Source: Bugula neritina
Lineage: Eukaryota > Animalia > Bryozoa
Direction: 5' to 3'
NCBI GenBank assembly: GCA_964035545.1
Contig: OZ037765.1
Coordinates: 19,034,995-19,098,994 of the forward strand
Length of the DNA: 64,000 bases
How positions within the stretch are numbered: the stretch's first letter is position 1; each line of letters starts with the position of its first letter. This document shows positions 1 to 62,700 of the stretch, one piece after another. The notes under the pieces were generated by a model. That model was given only the letters and a program-made list of their open reading frames with translations. It did no database searches and was not told the origin of the DNA. A program made the translations under genes and the position numbers.

Positions 1-3000
1 CCGAAGTCGTAATTTGGACATCACTCGCTTGACCCCTGCGTGGGCCTGCTTGTGAGTATCCCAAATCAACTCACGGCGGATGGCTGTGGGGCAGACCACC
101 CTCTTCCTTTCCGGGTGTCTGCCGCTGGCAGCTAGAGAGATGGTTAGTAACCCATCCTGCCCGATCCGCAGCGAGTCCCAACGCTGACAGTATAGCCGGA
201 ACTCGGCGCATCCCTGTCGTATGCGTTCCTCGCTGGGTCGTCGCCCTTCCCTTTTGGCCCGGTATATGTCCGCCACGACTCCAGGCAGCTCTTCTTGGAG
301 CTTCTTCAGCTCTCGAACATTACCGGCCAGTACAGGGTTGGTGCGGAGGTTTTGTACATCCTCCGGGGACTCATCAACTCTTTGCCTGAGTTGACCTTGA
401 TCCCAGTCAAACGGTGCTCCGTGATGAGCCAGCGTCTCCAACTCGCATCGTGGGGGACCTCCATCCCTCCTCTCGATGTTGAGACACTGTTTGCAACCTT
501 CGTCAGGTCGACGACTCAACCCATCCGCATTGCTGTGTCTCTTGCCCGGTCGATGTTCGATCCGGTATGAGAATTCAGCTAGGATTTCGAGCCACCGGGC
601 GACCTGACTAGAGGGCTCTGCTCTCCTGCACAACCAGATCAGCGAGGCATGATCCGTACGCAGCCGGAACTTCCTGCCATATAGGTATGGTCTGAAGTGC
701 TTCACTGACTTGATTACTGCCAGCAGCTCCTTGCGGGTAGTGCAGTAATTTCGTTCAGCGGGTGAGAGAGACTTGCTGTAGTAGGCTACTACTACCTCTC
801 GGCCTTCCTGCACTTGTGACAGCACAGCGCCAACATTCTGGTCACTGGCGTCCGTGTCTAGGATGTACTCCAGAGTGAGGTCTGGGTAGGCCAAGATGGG
901 CGCCGTTAGTAGGCAGCCCTTGAGGCGGTCGAACGCTTCTTGTTCGACTGGAGTCCACTGCCACGTCACCCCCTTTGCGGTGAGCCGGTTTAACGGCTGA
1001 GCTATGCCCGCAAAGTCTGGTATGTATTGCCTGTAATACCCTACCAGCCCCAAGAAAGCCCGGAGTCCGGTCAAGTCTTGGGGGGTGACCCAATCTTCTA
1101 CTGCCCGTACCTTTTTGGGATCCGTTGCCACGCCGTTTCGACCGACAACGTGCCCCAGGTACTTGACCTCCGGCTGCAATAGAGCGCACTTGGAAGGTTT
1201 GAGCTTAAGACCGGCACCTCGGAGTCTCTCGAAAACCTCTTGCAGACGACTGACATGTGTCTCGAAGTCTGGAGAGATTACGATGACATCATCGAGGTAG
1301 ACCAGCAGTGTCTTCCAATGGAGTCCGCTAAGGACTTGTTCCATCAGCCTCTGGAAGGTGGCTGGGGCGGAGGTTAACCCGAAGGGCAGCACCTTCCACT
1401 TCCACAAACCGTCCCGTTTTATAAACGCCGCTTTCTCTTGGGCGTCGGGACTCAGAGGAACCTGCCAATAGCCGCTTAGCAAGTCTAACGTACTGAAGTA
1501 CTTGCTGCCGGCTAGGGCGTCCAATGACTCGTCAATACGAGGTAGAGGGTAGGCGTCCTGTATGGTTACGCTATTGAGTTTGCGGTAGTCCACACAGAAC
1601 CGCCAACTGCCGTCTTTCTTCCGGACCAGTACGACTGGCGAGCTCCACGCACTATGGGCGGGCTCTATCAGTCCCCGGTCCAGAAGATCCCGTACTTGTC
1701 GGCTAACCTCCTTCTCTTTCTCCGGCCCCAGCCTGCGCGTGGGCTGCCGGACATGGACTGTCCCTGCAGTCATCGGTATTTCGTGTCTGACAATTCCAGT
1801 CAGTCCCACGTCATGCTCTCCGCTGCTGAACACATCACCGTAGTCGCGTAGTAACTTAGCCATAGCTTGGCGTTCCCTGTTACTCGCGCAGCCGCCACTG
1901 GCTGTTTCATATAACTCCCGGAGATGTGTTGGGACTGCCCCTCGTCCCTGAATAGGGTGTCGAGGGAGTGCCTCTGTCGCATCATCCAGCGACGGGCCTA
2001 CGTCTCTCTCCTGAACAGAGTGAAAACGGCCCAGCATCGACCCAGCCGGGAGCTTGATAGGCTCGGTAAAGGGGTTGACGCACTGCACTAAGATCTCCCC
2101 TTGCTCAGTCAGCTGATTCAGACTGCTGGCAAGTTGGATCTTTTCGTGCGCGCCTTCGACCACCCCGAGTCCAGAGATCCGGCTACTATTCACCCTGCAG
2201 TGAATGGTAGCCCGGGAGCGGCCTGGTATGGTACGGTTGCGTACCACTTGCACACCTCCCACTAAAGGGCGGTTGAACTTGTCGACGCAGGCGAGTTCCC
2301 GCCCGGACATCATCATTGCAGATCTGCTAAAATCTATGTGACATCCGTGCCGTTTAAGGAACGGCATCCCGAGGATAGCATCCTCCTTGAGCTGACTGAC
2401 GATGAACGTCTCTTGGATCGTTTGATCGTGGACTCGTCCCGTCAGCTCAATTATACCATAGAAGGGAAGGCACGACCCGTCAGCTAGGGTGCCGTATTCC
2501 CCTTCGTATGCTTCCATCTCGCCCCTGACCCTAGCACTGAGGGTGTCGAAGAGTTGGCGGCTTAAGAGGTTTGTGGTACAGCCCGAATCAATGAGAAAAG
2601 TAACAGCTTTGCCTTCCAGTTTACCGGGCAAGAAATAGCTGTTCCCATGGGGCTGCACCTGAACTCTCCCTTCAGGCCTTACTCTCGCAGGGAGTACCTC
2701 TCTCGCTTTGGGTCGCGAAGGAGGTCTCTTGGGGCGGTGGTAGGTAGGCCTCGGGGGTGCCGAGGCTAGATTCTCAGCTACCTTTGTGTGCTCCCATCCA
2801 GATTCTTGGACTTGTAGCCCTGTGAATCTGTTGTGAAGGGGCATAGAAAAGGCAGCCGCGGGGCGAAGCCCCTTGCTGGTCCGTCGTGGCTGTTGCCACT
2901 GTTGGTTGCCAGTACGCGGTACCCGTCTGGGTGACCTGCGTTTCTTCTTCCCTGGAGGTTTCATCGTCGGTCCGCGGAAGGTGGGAACATCTGCGGGCCG

Positions 3001-3072
3001 CGGTAGTTTAACCCCTGATTTAGGAAGGGACAATATCGGCGGAAATGTCCTTGATTTCCGCACTCCCAGCAA
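1..3072 (-). CDS. pol: Gypsy pol of copy 1 (protease, RT, RNase H, start of integrase), partial
   Basis: Mirror of 53679-56750. Has CGA where copy 2 has TGA. The ORF track shows no stop-terminated fragment in this frame, so it appears open to the window edge. Confidence 0.9.
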   Translation of the reverse strand, partial: MLGVRKSRTFPPILSLPKSGVKLPRPADVPTFRGPTMKPPGKKKRRSPRRVPRTGNQQWQQPRRTSKGLRPAAAFSMPLHNRFTGLQVQESGWEHTKVAENLASAPPRPTYHRPKRPPSRPKAREVLPARVRPEGRVQVQPHGNSYFLPGKLEGKAVTFLIDSGCTTNLLSRQLFDTLSARVRGEMEAYEGEYGTLADGSCLPFYGIIELTGRVHDQTIQETFIVSQLKEDAILGMPFLKRHGCHIDFSRSAMMMSGRELACVDKFNRPLVGGVQVVRNRTIPGRSRATIHCRVNSSRISGLGVVEGAHEKIQLASSLNQLTEQGEILVQCVNPFTEPIKLPAGSMLGRFHSVQERDVGPSLDDATEALPRHPIQGRGAVPTHLRELYETASGGCASNRERQAMAKLLRDYGDVFSSGEHDVGLTGIVRHEIPMTAGTVHVRQPTRRLGPEKEKEVSRQVRDLLDRGLIEPAHSAWSSPVVLVRKKDGSWRFCVDYRKLNSVTIQDAYPLPRIDESLDALAGSKYFSTLDLLSGYWQVPLSPDAQEKAAFIKRDGLWKWKVLPFGLTSAPATFQRLMEQVLSGLHWKTLLVYLDDVIVISPDFETHVSRLQEVFERLRGAGLKLKPSKCALLQPEVKYLGHVVGRNGVATDPKKVRAVEDWVTPQDLTGLRAFLGLVGYYRQYIPDFAGIAQPLNRLTAKGVTWQWTPVEQEAFDRLKGCLLTAPILAYPDLTLEYILDTDASDQNVGAVLSQVQEGREVVVAYYSKSLSPAERNYCTTRKELLAVIKSVKHFRPYLYGRKFRLRTDHASLIWLCRRAEPSSQVARWLEILAEFSYRIEHRPGKRHSNADGLSRRPDEGCKQCLNIERRDGGPPRCELETLAHHGAPFDWDQGQLRQRVDESPEDVQNLRTNPVLAGNVRELKKLQEELPGVVADIYRAKREGRRPSEERIRQGCAEFRLYCQRWDSLRIGQDGLLTISLAASGRHPERKRVVCPTAIRRELIWDTHKQAHAGVKRVMSKLRLR

Positions 3073-3914
3073 AAACTGACTGTTTCTCCCTGTGGCGGCG
3101 CCGATGGCCGCATGGGCTCAGGGGCGGTACTCACTGGGTTTTGTGGTGTCAGTGTTGCTATCAGCTTGGCTAGCATGTCCGTCAGTTGAGTGACTTTTGA
3201 TGCCGTCGCCAACTGGGACACGGCAGCCGCGGCGGGGGTTTCCTCCCCTTGTCCCGCGGCCGCGTTTGCGCGGTCTATCTCCACTTGGCGGGAGCTTCCG
3301 CGGCTTTTATGCATTTGATTAGCTAGGAGGTAAGCTTCCCCCTCAGTCAGAGCATCTTCAACGGTGGTGACTCCCCTAGCTAGAAACTGGTGGTGGAGAC
3401 CCAGATCGTCGACAGATGCTATGAAAGCGTCGAGGGTGTACCTCTCGCGGTTGACTGGGGGCAAGTCGCTGTACGCGATCTGTGCCAGCTTCATGACCGC
3501 GGCGGCATGCTCCCGCAGCGGGGTGCGGGGGTCACGCCGCAACCTCTGCAATCGGGCCCTGGCATCTGTAGCAGAGAGGCCAAAGCGGGCCCGCAGAGAA
3601 GCAAAGATATTATCAATGTCTACGCCCAGCCCATAGGGCTTGGCTTTGTCCATCAATGCCATTCTAAGCTTCAGCAAGGCCACCCTAGGGGGCCACTGAG
3701 CGACGTCCATTACGTCGCTAAACTCTTGGATAAATTGTTCCACCTCCTCTTCACCCGTGAAGGTGGGCGCCTTTAACCTGTAGCGGTCCTCAGCTAGTTC
3801 TCGCGGAACCCTTCGCTCTTCTACTACATGGTTAACAGGCATTGTCTCTACAGCATTGTCTCTACGCTCACCTTCGATTGCCGGTGGTTGAGTTCCAGCA
3901 TTTTCAGTCTCCAT
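2961..3914 (-). CDS. gag: Gypsy gag of copy 1, intact 317 aa with CCHC zinc knuckle
   Basis: ORF starts just after the PBS. Contains an LKAPTFTG capsid-type motif and the knuckle CWECGNQGHFRRYC. Confidence 0.93.
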   Translation of the reverse strand: METENAGTQPPAIEGERRDNAVETMPVNHVVEERRVPRELAEDRYRLKAPTFTGEEEVEQFIQEFSDVMDVAQWPPRVALLKLRMALMDKAKPYGLGVDIDNIFASLRARFGLSATDARARLQRLRRDPRTPLREHAAAVMKLAQIAYSDLPPVNRERYTLDAFIASVDDLGLHHQFLARGVTTVEDALTEGEAYLLANQMHKSRGSSRQVEIDRANAAAGQGEETPAAAAVSQLATASKVTQLTDMLAKLIATLTPQNPVSTAPEPMRPSAPPQGETVSFCWECGNQGHFRRYCPFLNQGLNYRGPQMFPPSADRR

Positions 3915-3945
3915 CTTGGATGCACTATCCCACCGCTGCCACCAC

Positions 3946-4250
3946 TGTTATGATTTTTAGATTTAGGGTTGATGTGCTATCCAGAGAGTCTATTTATTTA
4001 CTATAGAACTGCACCAGGATAAGTCGAGTGAACGAGTATATTTTACACACAATTATACATTATAAAAACGATACATTATTTCCAAACAAGTTACACATCT
4101 AATCTATTTCACACTCTAGCTTCGACTGAGTTAGCAGCGGGAAACTACAATTGCTGCTAACTATCAACTACGCTAATTGGCTATCCATTGTTCCGGGTCA
4201 ATTACGCGACCCTACATGTCGTGCTGCTGGTAGTTCCACGAACCACCACA
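3946..4250 (-). repeat. 5' LTR of copy 1 (305 bp)
   Basis: About 4-5 substitutions relative to the LTRs at 52501 and 59701. TG...CA ends. Confidence 0.96.
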
Positions 4251-45300: not shown

Positions 45301-48300
45301 TATTCCAGGGAAAGCCTTTTGTATGTTTCTATTGTAATAAAATGTGTTGTTTAAAAAGTGTCTTGTCTTTTTAACATAGGATTTCTACAATTAATGCTGA
45401 ATTGGTGAGCAGCTATGATATTATATATGTTGTTTATTTACCCACTACCCAAACAGGACAGAGCGAAGATAGTTGAGCATATGTTGCTTATCTACTGCTA
45501 ATACTTGCCTGTTGAGGCAAACAGTATGTTGCTGTTTTAGACAACGTATGGGATGACTGAAACCTTTCTTATAGCTCGAACCAACTTGGGTGACAAAGCT
45601 TCTGACCTTGAGCTAATGCTAGATGCAAGGCTGTATCCTAAACTAAACGTTGAGGTACAAACATGAGTAAAAGCAAACTAAATGGGCATAAAATCTTTGC
45701 AGACTAAACAAAACTTGAATTGATTTTCTTTAACCTTTCTATCACAAATAAGTTTAGAAGTCTACAGCATTTTTAGGTTTATAATAGACTAACATCTTTC
45801 TTGGCAATATGCCACTGTTATAAACTTAGTAAAACAAAGACTAGGCGTTTAATAGACTTGATAAGTAAGTGCTCATACTGCCTACCTGGAAAATATCTAA
45901 TATCAATCTATATATATAGTTTTGTAGATTCTTGATTGATTTACTGTTTAGATTATTGGCTTAAGATACCAAATGCACCATTGCATTGACTATAAATTGA
46001 CTATAAGTACTTTATAATGAAATATTTGTTATATGCTTTTAATAACTTCATTTTTGATTTTTAATTCAATCATTGTAATTTTGTGAATCCATAATACATC
46101 AACAGTGTTAGCTAGTCTCATTCACCTGGTAGCTCACCCTTTAAATAGATTCTTACTCTCATTTTGAAGTTGCGGCTGGTAGATGAAAACAATGAAGTTG
46201 TTGACATTGGTAAAGATGGTGAAGTGCAAATAAAATCCTACTGTATCTTTAAGCACTATAAAGGAGAGCAGGATAAGACCAGAGCTGCCTTTACAGATGA
46301 TGGCTTCTTCAGAACTGGGTAACAAGTGTCTACATACAAACCTATTACAGCTAAGCAAACTTTTTGCAACGTAACGTTGATTTAATTAAACTGGTCAATC
46401 ATATATTTCTATAATTTGTGGATATAATTAATTTATAATATGAGCAGAGTGTTTTGAGTTTTGCTTATTAATTTTGAATGATACCTAATACATGATTGCA
46501 TTAAGCATCAGAAACTTACTTTTCATAAAGGTATTTGTTGACAAGCTAATGGGAGCAGTCGTGGTCTAAGGGTTAGAGCGTTTGCCTAGTAAGTCCGAAG
46601 ACATGGGTTCAAACTCCAACAAAGGCCATTGGCGATTTTAGAAAGAGCATCCAGTCATAATTGCTCCTGTGCCCCCTCTGAATAAGTCCTTTTCTCGATT
46701 TACCATAAAACCCCTTTCATCAGGGGTTTCTCACAGGGATGGGAAATATAAACTTTTGTGGGTTTTTATTTGTTGACAATTTAATAAAATAGGCCAACAC
46801 TAATTTTTTGATTTGATTTGATTTTTATTAGGGTGTTTTTGATTCGGTGTATAATAAGAGGTTAAATGCAGTGTTCATATACATAACTGTTTAATAAACG
46901 CGTCTAGGGTCTGTGGTAGAGGGTTATATATGTTTACTCAATGTAACATTTAAACTTTTAATTCTGCCATGAGGATGAGTTATTAAGGTGTGTAAATTTG
47001 CACACCCTACTACTCATAATATTGAGATGAACTTTGTTTTGCCACAGGGACATGGCAACAATGTATCCAGATGGCACTTTTATAATAAAAGGAAGAACTG
47101 CTGATGCCATCAGGTTTAAAGTATTTGGAGATGTGCTCTATCCTGGTCCAATTGAGCAGGTCGTTTCAAAGTATCCAGGGGTCCAGGATGTATCGGTAAG
47201 TTAATTTGTATAGTCTACTATACTAAACTTTTGCCTCTAGCAGATGGCTTATTAATAATATTACTTAAATCTGCCATATCTGTTTTTATGTTTCAACATT
47301 CTACAGAGAGTTGTTTTTCTGCAAGTCCATTAAAATTGCACATTTTCAAAACCTTATTTTAAACTCTTACATTGCTATTTTCTAGGGTCCCTCATGTTAT
47401 TAATTAACAAGTACCTAATTTAAATTAACTTTGTAATCTCATTTTGATTTTGTTTACGTGTGATATAATATAAATATTAATCATAGGTTGTTGGTGGAAG
47501 ACAGAGTGATGCTATAGGTGATGAGCTGACATACTGTATTAGGTAAAGTTCTGTGCCATCTTTCTGCATGTCATTATAAGATGCATGATTTGTTTGAAAA
47601 TTGTGCAAAGGTGAGGTTTTATTTATTCATTTTGAAATTGTAGCTTGCATGAGGGAGTGAGTCAACCCAGTGAGGAAGACATCTTTACCTACTGTGCTGA
47701 AAATGGGGTTAGTTTCTTTCTGTTTTTTGTTAATTATTACTTGCCAGGTACGTTGGTGTCATTAGATTTCTATTGACATGAAATACCAAATCGAAACACA
47801 TTTTTTGATGAATAGGATTTAAGCTGTCCTCTGCAGTATTTAGAACACATAAAACAACAAATACTCACTATTAAATTGTCATAATATTATCTTGTTTTAT
47901 TGGTTTTATTCTATTATATATGTTTTCAAGTTTTATTATCAATATTTGAAGTACCCGCCGGCACTGTTCAATTAAGATGTTTTGGTGTGTAGGTTTTAAT
48001 TTCGGTGAAAGGTTTTCATGGGTCTGTTGAGTTAGGGCCTCGCATGCAGAGAAAAGTAAATGAGGTAACATAATAAAAAGGGCAGTTATCTTGAAGCAAG
48101 ATGTAGTGTTGAGACTACCCAGTAGTCCTTGTGGTGTAATGGCTAGCCTGCTAGCTTTTCAAGCTGTGGGTCTGCAGTTCAAATCATTGTAGGGGTAAAT
48201 ATTTCACTTTCACGAAATGCATCTTGATGTTTCTTTATAATTTTTAGTTAGATGAGACTCAAAGAGCTGCAAGAATCATTTACTTTGAACGGCTTCCTAC

Positions 48301-50783: not shown

Positions 50784-53700
50784 TCAATAATTAATTTGGT
50801 AGATTTCTAAAATGGGAACATCGCAAAATTTATGCTTCAACTAAATAGTGATACAGCAAATTGGGAGAAAATCATTTTGTTTTATAATTCTGTTTTATAG
50901 GCTTTGCAAAATGTATAAGAAAATAGGTAAAGCTATTACCTTTATTTAGATCTTGGAACCACTTTGTCATACCAACATTGCTGTCTTTTTCCAACATGTC
51001 TTCAACTTTTTCTTTAAGCATTTTTTTGCTGAACTGCAAGGCAAAAGAATTTAGGATAAAGCAATAATTTCATTTATTATATTCAAATTACTACTTTTTG
51101 ACATTCAGAAAACTCAGTACCTAACATTTTATAAACTGTAAAAATTCTGGCAAGATGAAAATGCTAACAATAAAAACTGACAACTAACATAGGGCTTACA
51201 AAGATTTTAACAGCAATGTTTGACCAATATACCTGAATTAAAAATACAAGACTTACTTTTCTGCCATTTGCAGTTAAAGGAAAAGAATCAAAGTAAATAA
51301 TTCTCGCAGCCCTTTGTATTTCATCCAACTGCAAAAAAAAACAAAGTATTTTTTTATAATGAGTAAAACACATGATGAATAGCTAATATTGAAAGATGTC
51401 ATATGGTTCAGTCAGAGTAATTAAACCACCATAACATAATAAGTACAGCTTGTTGAAAATCAACACACCACTGTTGGGAAGTTATCAGGTTTAAGGCTTC
51501 CATTGCACAGACAAAAAATAAAGTATTATAACTTGTATAGAACATTTTGATGTAAACTATATTATCATCTCAGTCAGGGTCCAGTCGTTTGACTATTTCA
51601 TTAAAGTTTAATTTAATTTTAACCAATTGGCTGCTTTTTTTGTAGGATCTTTAAAAAAATTTGAACAACTCTACGACAAGTTTCATAAATAACTTAAGAT
51701 CACCAGTTTCTATACCTAATATGCTATAGTAATCATGTGAGATGAATAAGAAATATTACAGTAGCAAATTTGATAATTATTATGAGCAAATGTCTAAAGT
51801 ATGCTTTCTTTTTGCATATGAAAAAAGCACAACTCTGACTTGGTGCACCAGGATATTTAAACTAAATAATTTATTACAAATACTTATAATTAAATCAACA
51901 ATTGAAGCTCAACTACTGATGTTAAGAATAGCTATCTTACACCATTTTGAGCACAAAACTCCAGCAGTTCTTCATCGGTAGGCTGTTTCTCTCCGTCATG
52001 CATTCTAAATATTTTAATTAAAATTTGAGAGAACTTTCACACAAATTCAACATACAGAGGCATGTAATAAATTAAATATTATAATTAAAATCTGGTTGTC
52101 TTTATAAGATCTTCAAACACAGCATTGTAAAATAGATCAACATGTATGCCGTTAATAATAATGAAATAACAGTCTAACAACTATCAAAATATAGCTTCAA
52201 AGGAATTGTGTTGAGCGAGCGCAAAATATATTTTCACTATAATATAGTGAAAATATGTTCTGCACTCACTCAACACAATTCATTTAAAGCTATATTTTGC
52301 TATACAATCCCATAGCACTTGATATAGATAATTAATATATTATATTTTAATTTGGGTGTTAAAAATTGTTACCAACTAGCACACTTTGCAAGTACAAAAG
52401 TATTTGTACCAACATATGTAACTGTGCTGTATTATTGAGAGAACGTCGATTTGCAACAAACGTATGCAAATGCATCTTTTAAACTTCTCAAACAAAATAT
52501 TGTGGTGGTTCGTGGAACTACCAGCAGCACAACATGTAGGGTCACGTAATTGACCCGGAACAATGGATAGCCAATTAGCGTAGTTGATAGTTAGCAGCAA
52601 TTGTAGTTTCCCGCTGCTAACTCAGTCGAAGCTAGAGTGTGAAATAGATTAGATGTGTAACTTGTTTGGAAATAATGTATCGTTTTTATAATGTATAATT
52701 GTGTGTAAAATATACTCGTTCACTCGACATATCCTGGTGCAGTTCTATAGTAAATAAATAGACTCTCTGGATAGCACATCAACCCTAAATCTGAAAATTA
52801 TAACAGTGGTGGCAGCAGTGGGATAGTGCATCCAAGATGGAGACTGAAAATGCTGGAACTCAACCACCGGCAATCGAAGGTGAGCGTAGAGACAATGCTG
52901 TAGAGACAATGCCTGTTAACCATGTAGTAGAAGAGCGAAGGGTTCCGCGAGAACTAGCTGAGGACCGCTACAGGTTAAAGGCGCCCACCTTCACGGGTGA
53001 AGAGGAGGTGGAACAATTTATCCAAGAGTTTAGCGACGTAATGGACGTCGCTCAGTGGCCCCCTAGGGTGGCCTTGCTGAAGCTTAGAATGGCATTGATG
53101 GACAAAGCCAAGCCCTATGGGCTGGGTGTAGACATTGATAATATCTATGCTTCTCTGCGGGCCCGCTTTGGCCTCTCTGCTACAGATGCCAGGGCCCGAT
53201 TGCAGAGGTTGCGGCGTGATCCCCGCACCCCGCTGCGGGAGCATGCCGCCGCGGTCATGAAGCTGGCACAGATCGCGTAGAGCGATTTGCCCCCAGTCAA
53301 CCGCGAGAGGTACACCCTCGACGCTTTCATAGCATCTGTCGACGATCTGGGTCTCCACCACCAGTTTCTAGCTAGGGGAGTCACCACCGTTGAAGATGCT
53401 CTGACTGAGGGGGAAGCTTACCTCCTAGCTAATCAAATGCATAAAAGTCGCGGAAGCTCCCGCCAAGTGGAGATAGACCGCGCAGACACGGCCGCGGGAC
53501 AAGGGGAGGAAACCCCCGCCGCGGCTGCCGTGTCCCAGTTGGCGACGGCATCAAAAGTCACTCAACTGACGGACATGCTAGCCAAGCTGATAGCAACACT
53601 GACACCACAAAACCCAGTGAGTACCGCCCCTGAGCCCATGCGGCCATCGGCGCCGCCACAGGGAGAAACAGTCAGTTTTTGCTGGGAGTGCGGAAATCAA

Positions 53701-56700
53701 GGACATTTCCGCCGATATTGTCCCTTCCTAAATCAGGGGTTAAACTACCGCGGCCCGCAGATGTTCCCACCTTCCGCGGGCCGACGATGAAACCTCCAGG
53801 GAAGAAGAAACGCAGGTCACCCAGACGGGTACCGCGTACTGGCAACCAACAGTGGCAACAGCCACGACGGACCAGCAAGGGGCTTCGCCCCGCAGCTGCC
53901 TTTTCTATGCCCCTTCACAACAGATTCACAGGGCTACAAGTCCAAGAATCTGGATGGGAGCCCACAAAGGTAGCTGAGAATCTAGCCTCGGCACCCCCGA
54001 GGCCTACCTACCACCGCCCTAAGAGACCTCCTTCGCGACTCAAAGCGAGGGAGGTACTCCCTGCGAGAGTAAGGCCTGAAGGGAGAGTTCAGGTGCAGCC
54101 CCATGGGAACAGCTATTTCTTGCCTGGTAAACTGGAAGGCAAAGCTGTTACTTTCCTCATTGATTCGGGCTGTACCACAAACCTCTTAAGCCGCCAACTC
54201 TTCGACACCCTCAGTACTAGGGTCAGGGGCGAGATGGAAGCATACGAAGGGGAATACGGCACCCTCGCTGACGGGTCGTGCCTTCCCTTCTATGGTATAA
54301 TTGAGCTGACGGGAAGAGTCCGTGATCAAACGATCCAAGAGACGTTCATCGTCAGTCAGCTCAAGGAGGATGCTATCCTCGGGATGCCGTTCCTTAAACG
54401 GCACGGATGTCACATAGATTTTAGCAGATCTGCAATGATGATGTCCGGGCGTGAACTCGCCTGCGTCGACAAGTTCGGCCGCCCTTTAGTGGGAGGTGTG
54501 CAAGTGGTACGCAACCGTATCATACCAGGCCGCTCCCGGGCTACCATTCACTGCAGGGTGAATAGTAGCCGGATCTCTGGACTCGGGGTGGTTGAAGGCG
54601 CGCACGAAAAGATCCAACTTGCCAGCAGTCTGAATCAGCTGACTGAGCAAGGGGAGATCTTAGTGCAGTGCGTCAACCCCTTTACCGAGCCTATCAAGCT
54701 CCCGGCTGGGTCGATGCTGGGCCGTTTTCCCTCTGTTCAGGAGGGAGACGTAGGCCCGTCGCTGGGTGATGCGACGGAGGCACCCCCTCAGTGCCCTATT
54801 CAGGGACGGGGGGCAGTCCCAACACATCTCCGGGAGTTATACGAAACAGCCAGTGGCGGCTGCGCGAGTAACAGAGAACGCCAAGCTATGGCTAAGTTAC
54901 TACGCGACTACGGTGATGTGTTCAGCAGCGGAGAGCATGACGTGGGACTGACTGGAATTGTCAGACACGAAATACCGCTGACTGCAGGGACAGTCCCTGT
55001 CCGGCAGCCCACACGCAGGCTGGGGCCGGAGAAAGAGAAGGAGGTTAGCCGACAAGTACGGGATCTTCTGGACCGGGGACTGATAGAGCCCGCCCATAGT
55101 GCGTGGAGCTCGCCAGTCGTACTGGTCCGGAAGAAAGACGGCAGTTGGCGGTTCTGTGTGGACTATCGCAAACTCAATAGCGTAACCATACAGGACGCCT
55201 ACCCTCTACCTCGTATTGACGAGTCATTGGACGCCCTAGCCGGCAGCAAGTACTTCAGTACGTTAGACTTGCTAAGCGGCTATTGGCAGGTTCCTCTGAG
55301 TCCCGACGCCCAAGAGAAAGCGGCGTTTATCACACGGGACGGTTTGTGGAAGTGGAAGGTGCTGCCTTTCGGGTTAACCTCCGCCCCAGCCACCTTCCAG
55401 AGGCTGATGGAACAAGTCCTTAGCGGACTCCATTGGAAGACACTGCTGGTCTACCTCGATGATGTCATCGTAATCTCTCCAGACTTTGAGACACATGTCA
55501 GTCGTCTGCAGGAGGTTTTCGAGAGACTCTGAGGTGCCGGTCTTAAGCTCAAACCTTCCAAGTGCGCTCTATTGCAGCCGGAGGTCAAGTATCTGGGGCA
55601 CGTTGTCGGTCGAAACGGCGTGGCAACGGATCCCGAAAAGGTACGGGCAGTAGAAGACTGGGTCACCCCCCAAGACTTGACCGGACTCCGGGCTTTCTTG
55701 GGGCTGGTAGGGTATTACAGGCAATACATACCAGACTTTGCGGGCATAGCCCAGCCGTTAAGCCGGCTCACCGCAAAGGGAGTGACGTGGCAGTGGACTC
55801 CAGTCGAGCAAGAAGCGTTCGACCGCCTCAAGGGCTGCCTACTAACGGCGCCCATCTTGGCCTACCCAGACCCCACTCTGGAGTACATCCTGGACACGGA
55901 CGCCAGTGACCAAAATGTTGGCGCTGTGCTGTCACAAGTGCAGGAAGGCCGAGAGGTAGTAGTAGCCTACTACAGCAAGTCTCTCTCACCCGCTGAACGA
56001 AATTACTGCACTACCCGCAAGGAGCTGCTGGCAGTAATCAAGTCAGTGAAGCACTTCAGACCATACCTATATGGCAGGAAGTTCCGGCTGCGTACGGATC
56101 ATGCCTCGCTGATCTGGTTGTGCAGGAGAGCAGAGCCCTCTAGTCAGGTCGCCCGGTGGCTCGAAATCCTAGCTGAATTCTCATACCGGATCGAACATCG
56201 ACCGGGCAAGAGACACAGCAATGCGGATGGGTTGAGTCGCCGACCTGACGGAGGTTGCAAACAGTGTCTCAACATCGAGAGGAGGGATGGAGGTCCCCCG
56301 CGATGCGAGTTGGAGACGCTGGCTCATCACGGAGCACCGTTTGACTGGGATCAAGGTCAACTCAGGCAAAGAGTTGATGAGTCCCCGGAGGATGTACAAA
56401 ACCTCCGCACCAACCCTGTACTGGCCGGTAATGTTCGAGAGCTGAAGAAGCTCCAAGAAGAGCTGCCTGGAGTCGTGGCAGACATATACCGGGCCAAAAG
56501 GGAAGGGCGACGACCCAGCGAGGAACGCATACGACAGGGATGCGCCGAGTTCCGGCTATACTGTCAGCGTTGGGACTCGCTGCGGATCGGGCAGGATGGG
56601 TTACTAACCATCTCTCTAGCTGCCAGCGGCAGACACCCGGAAAGGAAGAGGGTAGTCTGCCCCACAGCCATCCGCCGTGAGTTGATTTGGGATACTCACA

Positions 56701-59700
56701 AACAGGCCCACGCAGGGGTCAAGAGAGTGATATCCAAATTACGACTCCGGTGGTATTGGCCGCAGATGGAGCGTGACGTCCGGCTCAGAGTCAAACAGTG
56801 TGAGATCTGCCAGGCCAGTAAGCATAGCCGCCCCCCTGGTGAGGCAGGACGGCGGAGGCTATATGCTGGTAGGCCCTGGCAAGTAGTCGCTGTAGACCTG
56901 GTCGGACCCATGCCCCTGACCCCCAGAGGCAATAATTGGATCCTAGTACTAACCGACCACTTTACTAGGTGGGCGGATGCTCTGGCTATCCCAGATGCAT
57001 CAGCCCCAACAGTGGCCAGGGCGCTAGACCAACATGTATTCTGTTATTTTGGGCTTCCCGAACAGATACACTCTGATCAAGGCGCTCAATTCCAGTCTCA
57101 ACTGATGAGCGACCTTTGCCACCTCTGGGGAGTAAATCAGAGCAGGACCACCCCCTACCACCCTCAAGGTAACGGGGTGGTGGAGCGCAACAACCGGATG
57201 CTAGGTGATGCACTCCGGAGTCTCCTCCTTGGACGAGGTCAAGAGGAATGGGATACGGTATTGCCACAAGTCATGCGTGCATACCGTAGCACCCCACACA
57301 CCAGTACTGGTGAGACCCCAAACCTCTTGATGCTCGGGAGAGAGACTCGTGTCCCTGACCATCTCACCTACCACGTTCCAGAGCAAGACAACTCGGTTCA
57401 CGAGTATGCCAGTGAACTAGTGGAACGGATGAAGGCCGCACACGATATACTGCGTCAACAGCAGTGGAAGGTGCGGCACGAAGATTCCGATAAACCACCT
57501 CTCTATCAAACGGGAGATAAGGTGTGGATGGTCAATTACCGTAGGCGTCGCGGACAGGCTGATAAGCTGAAGCCTAAGTTCGTAGGCCCCTACGTGGTCG
57601 TCGAGGCTATGCCCAATCATACGTACAAGATTGAGCGCTCAGGACAGGTGTCTATCCAGAATGAGTCTCGCTTGAAACCGTATTGGGCTAGCCCCGGCGG
57701 AGTGGGAGAAGCCCCCCCGTTGTTAGAGCCCAGGAGGCAAACAACAACGCGCGGGCGACGGCGGCATGGACCTGAATACGAAGTGGTCATACCGCGGGAA
57801 GAAAACTTGGTGAGCGAGGAGCGGCAGCTTTTGTCAACAGAAGCGTGTCCGCCACCGCCAAGTCTAATTCCATCACTTCCAGAAACCGAGCCGGTTCCGG
57901 AAGTGCAAACCCCCACGGAGGGAGGGGCTCCATCCGGAGAACAAGAAGAGGTGACCGCTAACGGTGAAGTAGAGACGCCATTAGAGGCCCCTACTAACGA
58001 ACCGGCAAGCGTGTCACCCCCCCTAGAAAGGGGACAGCGTACGAGGCAACCCCCCGCATACTTGAAGGACTTCGTATGTGACTGCGTTAAAAGCGGCACA
58101 CATGAAAGTCTAGGGGAAAACCGTACGAGAAAAGAATCGAGCAAATGTGGGAGTTGTCAACACCACGGAAAAATCAACTTTTGTATCGGCGGAAATAGAA
58201 ACAAAATTCATCCGCCGGGTGCACAAAGTCTTAATCACGCACCCCAACCACGTTGCTCGATCTTTTCATACGCTGACGCAGTCAGGAGTAGACGTGTTTC
58301 TAAGCAGTAGTTCAAACCATTTCACACATTCAGTATGTCTTACGACAACAGATCGTGGGGTGAGTTAACTATATCTTAATACGAAACTAGATTGCATCGC
58401 TCAGCTCTGACTCACTGAGTCAATCGAGCTGGAGATAGGTTAGTGAAATACCGTAGTAAGAACTCAGTTTGACTTAGAGATTTTTATAATCTCATTGCAA
58501 TACGTGTTCTATCTGACTATTCACTACCATTAATCTCTACGAGGTAACTGAATTAGGAGTTGCCAAGCTGTTCAAGCTGACAACACAGCAGTGTACTGTA
58601 TTAACACTGTTGAAACTTTTTCAGATTACACTCGACCCGCTACAACCAGGGTACGGGATAGAACACTTCCCGCTCCGTATCCGGAGGAGTGTGCTAGTGG
58701 TGATCGGCCTGAGCCACTACGCCGCCGTTGGCGGTGGGTGTCTCCACAAACAGAGGAAGAAATAGAAACGGCCTGGGGGTCCAGAGGACGGACAAGATGC
58801 CAGATCTGTGGTGAAGATTGCGCCTCTCACCGCTCCCTTAAACTACACGTCAATGCTCATCTCCTACTAACATTCTGCTCCTGCGGGTACAATGATGTGT
58901 ATCCCTACCCCGTCACCAGACACCGAGCGGCGGGCTGTTTCCCTGGAGAAAACTACGTGGTCGACGCTAAGCTATACCCGGAGTTCCTCACACTTATACG
59001 ACCTCTGGTGAAGAAGGCCATGTTGTTAGCCGTTCTGTCCTCGGGGTTTCAACGTGTGTTAGACAACGCCCGCCAACAATCCCCGTTGGTGTCTGACCGT
59101 CCTCAAATTACATACACCCCCGAGGAAATTACATATCCAGAAGAAGGAGAGATCTCCCCACACCGGCGAAGAGACGAACCAGGTCCCCCAGTCCACCCTT
59201 GCGCCGCAGACGGACACCGTCCCCGGACCCAGTACGCCTGGCTACAGTAGAAGAACGCCTCCTACGATTACAAGAAGAGTTCACCCAGCTGGCACCAGAT
59301 CTACTTAACACTACCACAGGACTCTTCCAGCTAAAGGGATCCGTATGCCGTATGAAACGGAAACTGCGTACATGCCAAGCCAAACACCGGCGTGCCCAAC
59401 AAGGACTCTAGTTGGCTACCCAGAATACTCCGCAACTTCACATCTCGGGAAGAACCAAGATGTCATGCAAATGTTTGACTGCTTAACAGGTTATCCCCTG
59501 TCTAACACCACAGCTAGCTAGTATTCCTCGTCTATCTACAGCTGGCCACTTGTATGCAACGGATCGTTATAATGACTCTGTCTATTATTATGTCTCTTCC
59601 TGTATATTATGTATTATTTTGTCCACTGATGTATGCGGTTACTAATGAATGTTTTTTTTATGTATATATCAGAAAGATGGCTTTCTGCTGGTGGGGGCGG

Positions 59701-62700
59701 TGTGGTGGTTCGTGGAACTACCAGCAGCACAACATGTAGGGTCACGTAATTGACCCGGAACAATGGATAGCCAATTAGCGTAGTTGATAGTTAGCAGCAA
59801 TTGTAGTTTCCCGCTGCTAACTCAGTCGAAGCTAGAGTGTGAAATAGATTAGATGTGTAACTTGTTTGGAAATAATGTATCGTTTTTATAATGTATAATT
59901 GTGTGTAAAATATACTCGTTCACTCGACTTATCCTGGTGCAGTTCTATAGTAAATAAATAGACTCTCTGGATAGCACATCAACCCTAAATCTGAAAATTA
60001 TAACAATATGCTACTAAGTTTTATTGCATTTTGTTATATAAACATTATACTTAACTATTGTTCTATTCTTCATCAACTACAAATGATATTGATAGATGAT
60101 TTTTTTGCCATTTAAATTTCTTATGACCCACCTGATGCAATAGGTGATTTCATCTCCTATATAGTCATTGTTTTTAGCTCCAACAACCTAAAAATGAATC
60201 AACAACTGTAACTCATGCACTCTTGATTTTACGATTCATCTAATTTATAATTTTATTATAATCTACTTGATAAAATATCTATAAATTAGTTGAAGTGTAT
60301 TTCCATCTGATTAGGTACAAACAAAAGTTTATCAACTTTTCAAGATGCAATATGCAGACCTTGTTTCTCAGCACTATACATATATAACGTGCATAATAAT
60401 GACTGTCTATAGTTTTGAGTTACACTAATTTTCTTGAGCATACCAATGCGTTTTTAATTCCTGGGTACTTGGAAACTATTTTTTCTATTGGTCCAGGATA
60501 AACAACATCTCCGTATATCTTAAATCTTATAGCATCAGCAGTTCTTCCTTTTATTATAAAAGTGCCATCAGGGTACATAGTTCCCACATCTCTACAAATT
60601 AAAAGGAATGACAGTATAAGTCACCAAGTAGTCAGCTTCATTGTCAAATACGAAATTTAGAGCAATAACAGTTGCCTAAAATTATGTCTCAAATGATGTC
60701 TTTTTGTAAAAATTATTAATAATGCTATAAAACTTGAAGTTGATTTAAAGCATGTGAAATATGACAAAACACTCGTAGTTTACCTTGAAATATTTACAAA
60801 TTAAATAATATGTAAGATAAAGATATAGTTTTCAGTCACTATGAAGTTACAGGTAAATATTGTTTGTTAATTAACATTTTTACATTTAAAATTTGTATTG
60901 TTGAGTTAACCCAGCAGCCCTGTGGTGTAATTAGTTAGCACGCCTGCTTGCAAGCCGGAGGTCTGTGGTTTGAATCTCGGTGGGAACAATTATTTTACAT
61001 GTAAAAACTTTGCCCCTACTGGGATTCGAACCACAGACCTCCAGCTTAAGCAAGCAGGCCCTAACTAATTACACCACAGGAGCTGCTGGATTAACTCAAC
61101 ACTACATCCCACCCAGTTCTCTGAATTCCAATCGCCTCTCTACTACTCCTATAGTCTTCAGGTGTCCATGACCACTCAATCTCCCCCCCCCCCCCGAATA
61201 CTATTACACTTCACTAAAGGCCGAAATAGCTTGTAAAAAAATTGCCCCCACCGGATTTCAAACCACAGACCTCCGGCTTGCAGGCAGGCGTGCTAACTAA
61301 TTACAGGGACTACGGGGTACACTCAACACTACATCTCACCCAGTCCTCAAAAATTTCACTGGCTTCTCTACTAATTCTTCAGTCTTCATGCAGGCACCCC
61401 TGGCCACTCAACTCCCTCTGAGTACTACTACACTTACTCCACTAAAGGCCGAAATAGCTTATAAAAATCTTTGCCCCCACTGGTATTCAAACCCGGGACT
61501 TCTGGCTAGCAAGCAAGTGTGCTAACCATTACACCACCAGGGCCTCTGAGTCAACTCAACACTACAAAATTGAGCATCTGATGTTTTAAAACTTCCCAAT
61601 CTCTTAAATGGGGTCCTGAAGTGCAGTTAAGTCAATAAGATGTTTTAGTTTATTACATATAGAAAAATATTGGTAGAATACTGATGATGAATGGTGCATT
61701 AGATCTTATTCATGTAGTATCCCAAAAAGGTTTGATAAGTGGTAACAACCTTTCTCAAGTTAATTAGCTCTAAAAGCTGCAGTTTGCTTCCAAATGGTAA
61801 TTTAACTCTTTCTTTATTATTTTAGTTTAGTTTGCATTGCAGTAGCAGTATTGCTCTATGCTGCAATCTGTTTACGCTTAATTTTATTTTGTAGTATCAG
61901 TGAAAGAGTATAGACAATTGTTTTCATCATAAAATTATTCTTATGTTACACTTTTCTGCCCATTAAATTTGACTTGTTTAATTTTTCAACTCCATCACAA
62001 CATTGAAATTATTAAAACTGATAAACTTATTTTTTCAAATTACAAATTTACAATTTGGAGCTTACAACTTGCATATCATGAAGAGCAGCCTAATGGTGCA
62101 TAAGAAAGCTATGCATATTTTTAAGGTAGTATATGATTTAGAAATTATGAAAATTTCTCACTTAATTTTATTACCCTGTTTTGAAAAAGCCATCTTCTGT
62201 AAAGGCAGCTTTGGTTTTTTCTGGTTCGTCTTTATAACACTTCAAAGTACTAAATGTTTTAACTTGTATCTCGCCATCTTTACCAACATCTACCAGTTCA
62301 TTATTTTCATCTACCAGCCGCACCTGAAAAAATGTATTAATAATGATAATTCCAATCTCGCTACCCAAACAAGACAAAGTGGAGATAAGTGAGAAAAAAT
62401 AACTCCAATATATTTTTCTTGTGACAACAAAGCAAAAAATGATGCATAGCTGCAAACGACAAGAAATAAGCAAAATTTTAGGATTTTAAACTTATTGTTT
62501 GTAAAACTGAAGTTATCTCCCTATGTTACTGATAAGCAACTAGTTTATTAAATAAAATCATTGATGAACAAGTTCAAGTTGAACAAAAAATAAATGACAT
62601 AAATTAGCAGAGCAAAATATCTACAAAAATAGAATAAAACTTTACTCTGCATCCAAGCTATTTCTATCTCAAGGTTCTTTCATTGAGAAGCTACAAACTA

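Follow-up and report, generated by a model that had tools for sequence, protein, structure and literature searches.

How is a gene expressed that lies behind pol in an LTR retrotransposon and has no start codon ahead of its conserved domain, and what does its product do? The question is raised by a 7.5-kb element at positions 52501-60005 of the window, which is the 64,000-nt stretch of Bugula neritina contig OZ037765.1 analyzed here. The initial annotation described the third gene of this element as a spliced, non-env gene for a zinc-finger protein, with a 25-nt first exon directly behind pol, and took it as the sign of a "complex" Gypsy lineage with its own nuclear regulator. Our analysis supports a third gene that is conserved, depends on splicing, and is not an env gene. 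The third gene is thus real as proposed, but the short first exon (58335-58359) did not stand as its main form.

Structure of the element and its copies

The element has LTRs with TG...CA ends, an ATAT target-site duplication on both sides, a primer-binding site, which we take to be of the tRNA-Leu type, and a pol with the PR-RT-RH-IN order by Pfam, as is the case in Ty3/Gypsy elements (Table 1). A second copy is located at 1-4250 on the minus strand of the window and shows 79 differences over 4.26 kb. In this second copy, gag (2961-3914, minus strand) is open over 317 aa, pol has no stop as far as the window edge, and ATAT adjoins the LTR as well. The copy at 52501-60005 is young but broken: premature stops interrupt gag and pol (the latter at 55530-55532), and the third gene is frameshifted. 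A contig in run X5 joins both flanks of the element (window 52497-60008) and represents the empty site; in line with the single LTR mismatch, the insertion therefore looks recent.

Table 1. Positions in the window of the features of the element and of its third gene
Feature	Position	Strand	Remarks
5' LTR	52501..52805	+	305 nt, TG...CA; one mismatch to the 3' LTR
Primer-binding site	52807..52824	+	
gag	52837..53790	+	317 codons; premature stop 53278-53280 in the 52501-60005 copy
Gag leader exon	52837..52879	+	14 codons + 1 nt, phase 1; proposed main first coding exon
Major donor AAG/GTGAGC	52880..52885	+	top of 443 GT sites; identical in the second copy
Proposed long intron	52880..58624	+	5745 nt; takes out most of gag and all of pol
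pol	53634..58310	+	PR-RT-RH-IN order; -1 frame relative to gag
Non-coding gap, pol to exon 2	58311..58624	+	predicted multi-stem RNA; tolerates indels
Short exon	58335..58359	+	ATG; second-best donor 58360, predicted to be paired in a hairpin
Acceptor TTTTTCAG	58617..58624	+	sole TTTCAG in the 7.5-kb element
Exon 2 of the third gene	58625..59411	+	frameshifted near 59150-59160 in the 52501-60005 copy
Compact domain	58702..59085	+	W-x-S/T-x2-T helix, two fingers, V-D strand, three helices
Finger 1, C2H2, C-x2-C-x12-H-x3-H	58798-58860	+	below the Pfam cut-off in the 52501-60005 copy
Finger 2, C-x-C-x12-H-x4-C	58876-58938	+	
C-terminal long helix, predicted coiled coil	59229..59405	+	tail frame; after a variable Ser/Thr-Pro, Arg-rich linker
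3' LTR	59701..60005	+	G-rich tract at about 59689-59700 immediately before

The LTR contains a perfect 10-nt inverted repeat (52589-52598 and 52613-52622) and a GGGTCA...TGACCC inverted pair within 52539-52557, which are possible candidate sites for dimeric factors. Three short upstream ORFs of 12, 7, and 5 codons are found in the LTR (52653-52706) ahead of the gag ATG. Outside the element, inverted paralogous segments (75-77%) at 46149-46325, 47046-47198, 60441-60593, and 62168-62344 flank it and suggest a host gene duplication around the insertion. One of these segments resembles an acyl-CoA ligase exon, judging from a motif, and Pfam gave no match for it. At 60915-61095, past the 3' end of the element, a short inverted arrangement resembles a tRNA and may be a SINE or MITE. 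In protein P0246, a sequence closely related to Gag (88%) is fused in frame to an RNase H region; the protein is probably the product of an internally deleted copy.

The third gene and its homologues

The local signals that the initial annotation had read from the sequence are present. The ATG at 58335 lies 24 nt past the pol stop (58308-58310), and a GGG/GTGAGT donor at 58360 closes the 25-nt exon in phase 1. The exon is followed by a 265-nt intron that is AT-richer, as described (GC of 0.377 versus 0.54-0.57 in the coding parts), and by the acceptor TTTTTCAG/AT at 58624, which is in frame with the long ORF. The first in-frame ATG of the long ORF is at 59020, past both fingers, so that it indeed has no start codon ahead of them, and the two zinc-finger patterns read exactly as had been written. 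A loss of one base near 59160 had also been proposed. This is borne out by P0001, a natural relative with 97% identity, which reads through 59150-59160 without a shift and goes on to include the Arg/Ser-Pro tract as well as the long helix. There is no difference from P0001 over the 83 residues of the tail frame, and there are seven over the 186 residues of the front part.

The maximum hydropathy over 19 residues is 1.24 in P0001 and 1.51 in the window exon, in agreement with the claim that the protein has no TM helix. Neither P0001 nor P0033, another homologue, has a TM stretch, and values above 1.6 were found in 7 of 87 homologues. Membrane anchor and fusion-protein fold are both absent, and the model consists of a zinc domain and a helix; the gene is therefore not an env gene.

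We found 127 near homologues of the third ORF; among the 120 listed, identities are 45-76%, excepting P0001 and one fragment. A search of 1.84 billion representatives gave 124 homologues at an E value of 0.001 and 67 at 1e-10, a set that overlaps with the former. Every named homologue is bryozoan, from B. neritina or Watersipora subatra. In an alignment of 87 sequences, seven of the zinc ligand positions are conserved in 83-86 of 85-87 rows, compared with 67 of 83 for the eighth; the W-x-S/T-x2-T helix and the V-D strand are also kept, and the linker varies. The indels listed within 58200-58760 from four runs all fall outside the coding parts (10 of 10). Among contigs of 4 kb or more, five appear with identical sizes in the match lists of Gag and of the third ORF (null mean 0.25, maximum 2), which suggests that the two genes travel together. 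The third gene is almost certainly real and under selection. A one-off capture of a host gene is ruled out by the homologue family and by the contigs that Gag and the third ORF seem to share. Scanning of metagenome contigs and viral contigs yielded no DNA around the relatives, including the P0033 locus.

A probable splice from the Gag leader

A donor that the initial annotation had missed is located at 52880, 43 nt past the gag ATG (52837) and 5.7 kb upstream of the acceptor. Because it cuts in phase 1, it joins the 58624 acceptor in frame. In a ranking with a rough scoring matrix, in which this donor came first, the 58360 donor was second of 443 GT sites, the 58624 acceptor was 14th of 577 AG sites, and the AG at 58333 was 64th of 577.

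P0033 is a natural joined protein, the one such protein found, and it is the protein on which the Gag-leader join rests. This 261-aa homologue begins with 14 leader residues, which are followed by the D-H-T-R of exon 2. Its first 14 residues are identical (14/14) to the N terminus of the Gag homologue P0298, found by searching with the open gag copy, and P0298 then reads G-E, as encoded by the donor codons. The leader match score was 73 for P0033 and 43 for the next best of 242 homologues. Its contig has 5320 nt, which exceeds the expected spliced mRNA, so that P0033 is probably a retro-copy of spliced RNA.

Both splice sites have left footprints in proteins that are related, so that the following counts are not independent: among the Gag homologues that keep the N terminus (32 of 120), the donor codons encode E in 27 of 31, G in 28 of 32, and E in 32 of 32, within variable surroundings, and 28 of 120 third-ORF homologues extend to the acceptor, where the 27 unspliced ones read S-D (21), L-D (4), or S-G (2). 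These residues fit CAG or TAG at the acceptor. A Met is located three residues ahead of the acceptor Asp in 18 of the 27 read-through homologues, so that in some families translation of an unspliced RNA may begin at this Met; in the window copy the position is occupied by Thr.

No spliced read or contig with either junction was found in 206 contigs, four runs, and the listed loose ends (19 of 51) and joints (15 of 98). The sole RNA run (X2) gave scraps in 17 of 30 bins and left the 5' end of gag and the gap uncovered; we do not count it toward expression of the gene. Based on the phase, the P0033 protein, and the footprints at both sites, we suggest that the splice from the Gag leader is very probably the main route to the third gene. 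The best-scoring acceptor-like site of the element is a different one, at 59648-59672, just before the G-rich tract and the 3' LTR; a splice to this site would skip the third gene.

The short exon and the predicted RNA structure of the gap

In the form originally proposed, an internal promoter or an LTR leader provides an RNA on which translation starts at ATG 58335, and only the 265-nt intron is removed, giving 270 residues. It is very unlikely that this is the main form, although its high-ranking donor is in frame. Divergent contigs pile up on 58333-58370, and among the 40 of 92 substitutions listed none falls in the ATG or in 58357-58372, so that the short-exon island seems to be conserved. 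Re-initiation after pol is conceivable, as the ATG lies 27 nt on from the pol stop and in its frame. However, none of the 242 homologues begins like 58335-58359, the 58359->58625 junction is absent from the 206 contigs of the four runs (DNA runs or runs of unstated type), and a predicted hairpin pairs the donor. Three of the four changes listed in the exon alter the amino acid, and a start at the TCAGT would leave a leader of only about 3 nt. Moreover, when it is spliced in behind the Gag leader, as an exon of 26 nt, the frame shifts and a stop follows at 58763. The short exon may be a minor or alternative first exon, but it may also act as a cassette that shifts the frame or as a decoy donor. 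We do not favour a fusion to Pol by read-through, which the frame of the ATG would suggest, because in some copies 2 nt are inserted between the pol stop and the ATG.

The gap between pol and the acceptor folds with a z score of -3.45 (none of 100 shuffles was as good). In one natural copy with 20 changes in the gap, 13 are in loops and one pair is altered on both sides; 4 of the 20 changes break pairs, where 8.4 are expected (P of 0.018). The same stem test with all 27 variants gave a P of 0.12. Segments of 314 nt across gag-pol (53000-58624) had z scores of -1.9 to -3.95 in seven of seven cases, compared with 0.17 for the LTR, 0.37 for exon 2, and -0.49 for the 3' end, none of which folded better than shuffles. 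Because the gag-pol segments fold comparably and P is 0.12 with all variants, the fold signal of the gap is unspecific. The folding of the long intron may simply be an artefact of codon usage; alternatively, it may distinguish the unspliced genome. An Rfam search gave no match for the structure of the gap, in which a response element is possible.

The predicted protein and its relatives among bryozoan proteins

The predicted spliced product, composed of the Gag leader and exon 2, has 276 residues. AlphaFold gave a single compact domain of about 125 residues (pLDDT of 95.4, pTM of 0.87), a disordered linker, and a helix of 59 residues. The domain differs from a Kruppel array in that the TGEKP linker is replaced by a hydrophobic linker of five residues and the second finger is not of the C2H2 type. 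The Arg/Ser-rich insert is absent from most near homologues, and export-signal-like patterns in P0001 and P0033 fall within the folded core.

Comparisons of the model gave few leads. Foldseek found no match at an E value of 0.001 for the whole model against the PDB or for the domain against viral models, and VIA-align against 48,161 chains found none at a Z score of 5, which does not make the fold new. Leads from the ESM Atlas were all under 0.9, and Pfam returned weak C2H2 matches alone among the 87 members (8 and 6 members). The finger pair superposes best on DNA-binding tandem C2H2 pairs (rmsd of 2.4-3.5 A over 50-58 residues, Z of at most 3.7), and the sequence matches to C2H2 proteins span finger 1 only. 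As predicted by the model, the domain is a confident one without a clear structural match.

The double-finger domain is also present in uncharacterised bryozoan proteins, including KAF6040922, KAF6040923, and KAF6037488 of B. neritina and XP_067940963 and XP_067944745 of W. subatra, and some bryozoan proteins carry tandem copies. The named proteins P0366, P0367, P0187, and P0363 have one or two copies of the domain, and three of these four have a further N-terminal domain common to Bugula and Watersipora. It is possible that the named proteins represent a host gene family or a domestication, and some of them are probably host genes. In a tree of 69 of the 88 domain rows, with the near family thinned, they are scattered, and the tree gives no direction of transfer between host and element.

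Possible functions of the product

We consider it likely that the product of the third gene is a nuclear regulator that binds nucleic acid. A role specifically in the control of RNA export or splicing is put forward more tentatively, by analogy, and we give it somewhat less than an even chance. In such a circuit, one LTR transcript would be kept as full-length RNA (for Gag, Pol, and the genome) or, by default, be spliced. The protein made from the spliced RNA would dimerize by means of its coiled coil and bind the retained 5.7-kb intron, with the structured gap before the acceptor as a candidate site, and would shift the balance toward unspliced RNA by a nuclear action like that of CERV or Rev. 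The Ser/Thr-Pro linker might serve as a phosphorylation switch.

The control of export or splicing is favoured over DNA-binding and protein-binding roles on account of the layout of the gene and of the analogy with precedents. However, the superposition of the finger pair leans to DNA rather than RNA, and a protein factor may be dispensable, since some retroviruses export unspliced RNA via RNA structure and have no protein of their own for it, as stated in the available text of PMC10309623. The premise of the initial annotation, by which an intron in the sense strand cannot do without a Rev-like factor, was therefore overstated, in view of this protein-free export and of the env of errantiviruses and the ORF3s of rotifers.

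With the same Gag-leader splice, the product could instead bind DNA as a dimer and so activate or repress the LTR or protect the copies from host silencing. Finger 1 has the regular C2H2 form, the basic residues of its helix are conserved, and the best matches in sequence and structure are the DNA-binding C2H2 proteins HIC2, SALL, ZBTB, CTCF, and BCL11A. The perfect inverted repeat in the LTR and the sharing of the domain with named bryozoan genes would also suit a DNA-binding factor. We nevertheless regard this role as rather unlikely, because all the matches are weak (Foldseek E values of at least 0.7, Z of at most 3.7), the TGEKP linker is missing, the helix residue directly preceding the first His is mostly hydrophobic (L, V, or I in 72 of 87), and the fingers are embedded in a larger globular domain. 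Zinc-finger modules often bind proteins, and the same gene might act through protein contacts by blocking a host silencing factor, guiding integration, or entering the particle through the Gag leader. The compact double finger, the conserved Trp helix, and the lack of a clear structural match are compatible with protein contacts, as is the ATAT that adjoins the LTR in both insertions. This role is unlikely, as no partner is supported by positive evidence and, for a particle component, the 14-residue leader contains no capsid domain.

A wider version of the export and splicing circuit can be formulated, which we hold to be doubtful. Bryozoan, perhaps more widely lophotrochozoan, Gypsy elements would have acquired a Rev-like circuit independently of Cer1 and the lentiviruses, with a new double zinc-finger domain traded with host genes. 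The product would bind a structured element before its own acceptor, and the short exon, as a frame-shifting cassette or decoy donor, would tune both the protein level and the supply of unspliced genome.

Comparison with known systems

Spliced third ORFs and regulators of the CERV type are already known kinds. A zinc-finger family in the third-ORF slot was not found in the literature searched, and such a family may be annotated in Repbase, subscription papers, or supplements. The passages available of PMC13524379, PMC8220671, and PMC13326412 contain no zinc-finger third gene. As to how LTR genomes that contain an intron leave the nucleus and what non-env third ORFs do, CERV is the sole worked example found in the literature searched. 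The proposal of a complex Gypsy lineage with its own nuclear regulator thus names a kind of system already published for Cer1/CERV. The gene described here adds a second, apparently unrelated protein family in a spliced layout that shares its start with Gag. What is gained is a pair of exact junctions that can be sought in existing RNA-seq and, with P0033, a natural intact spliced product. The zinc domain, which is modelled with confidence and has no clear solved match, occurs in bryozoan genes too.

In HIV-1 and HTLV, Rev and Rex are products of spliced RNA that favour unspliced RNA. The logic proposed for the third gene would, by analogy, be the same. In contrast to Rev and Rex, the protein has a zinc-finger fold, and its family conserves neither a clear arginine-rich RNA-binding motif nor an exposed export signal.

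In the Drosophila errantiviruses gypsy, Tirant, and Kuruka, splicing to a conserved acceptor yields the subgenomic mRNA for env, according to the passages available of PMC13669377. The third gene resembles this env in being a third ORF after pol and in the proposed layout of a subgenomic mRNA that drops gag-pol, but it lacks both a TM segment and a fusion-protein fold. The env-bearing elements of bryozoans, as presented in the available text of PMC13524379, have a gB-type env and the order gag-env-pol. LTR elements of bdelloid rotifers carry non-env ORF3s of the GDSL, DEDDy, CC, and TM types, which are described as typically spliced (available text of PMC5408684). They and the third gene are family-specific third ORFs of lophotrochozoan LTR elements, and one of the rotifer types is a coiled-coil protein. 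The third gene differs from them in that it encodes no enzyme domain, and the words "zinc" and "finger" are absent from the text of PMC5408684 that was available.

The closest precedent in layout and proposed action is CERV of Cer1, a Gypsy/Ty3 element of Caenorhabditis elegans. As described in PMC10309623, CERV is spliced, has its N terminus in common with Gag, and is required for the export of unspliced RNA. It comprises 517 aa encoded by five exons, has H, M, and G-protein-like domains and possibly a C4 finger, and has been reported only from nematodes; PMC10309623 also ascribes to it a Cys finger, a leucine zipper, and phosphorylation at an S-P site. The likeness lies in the N terminus derived from Gag by splicing, which in the relative is seen in the 14/14 agreement of P0033 with P0298, and the window has the same site and phase. 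The third gene differs from CERV in that it would have two coding exons and a product of about 276 aa with a C2H2 and C2HC pair and a predicted C-terminal coil, and its model has no G domain and consists of one zinc domain of 125 aa and a long helix.
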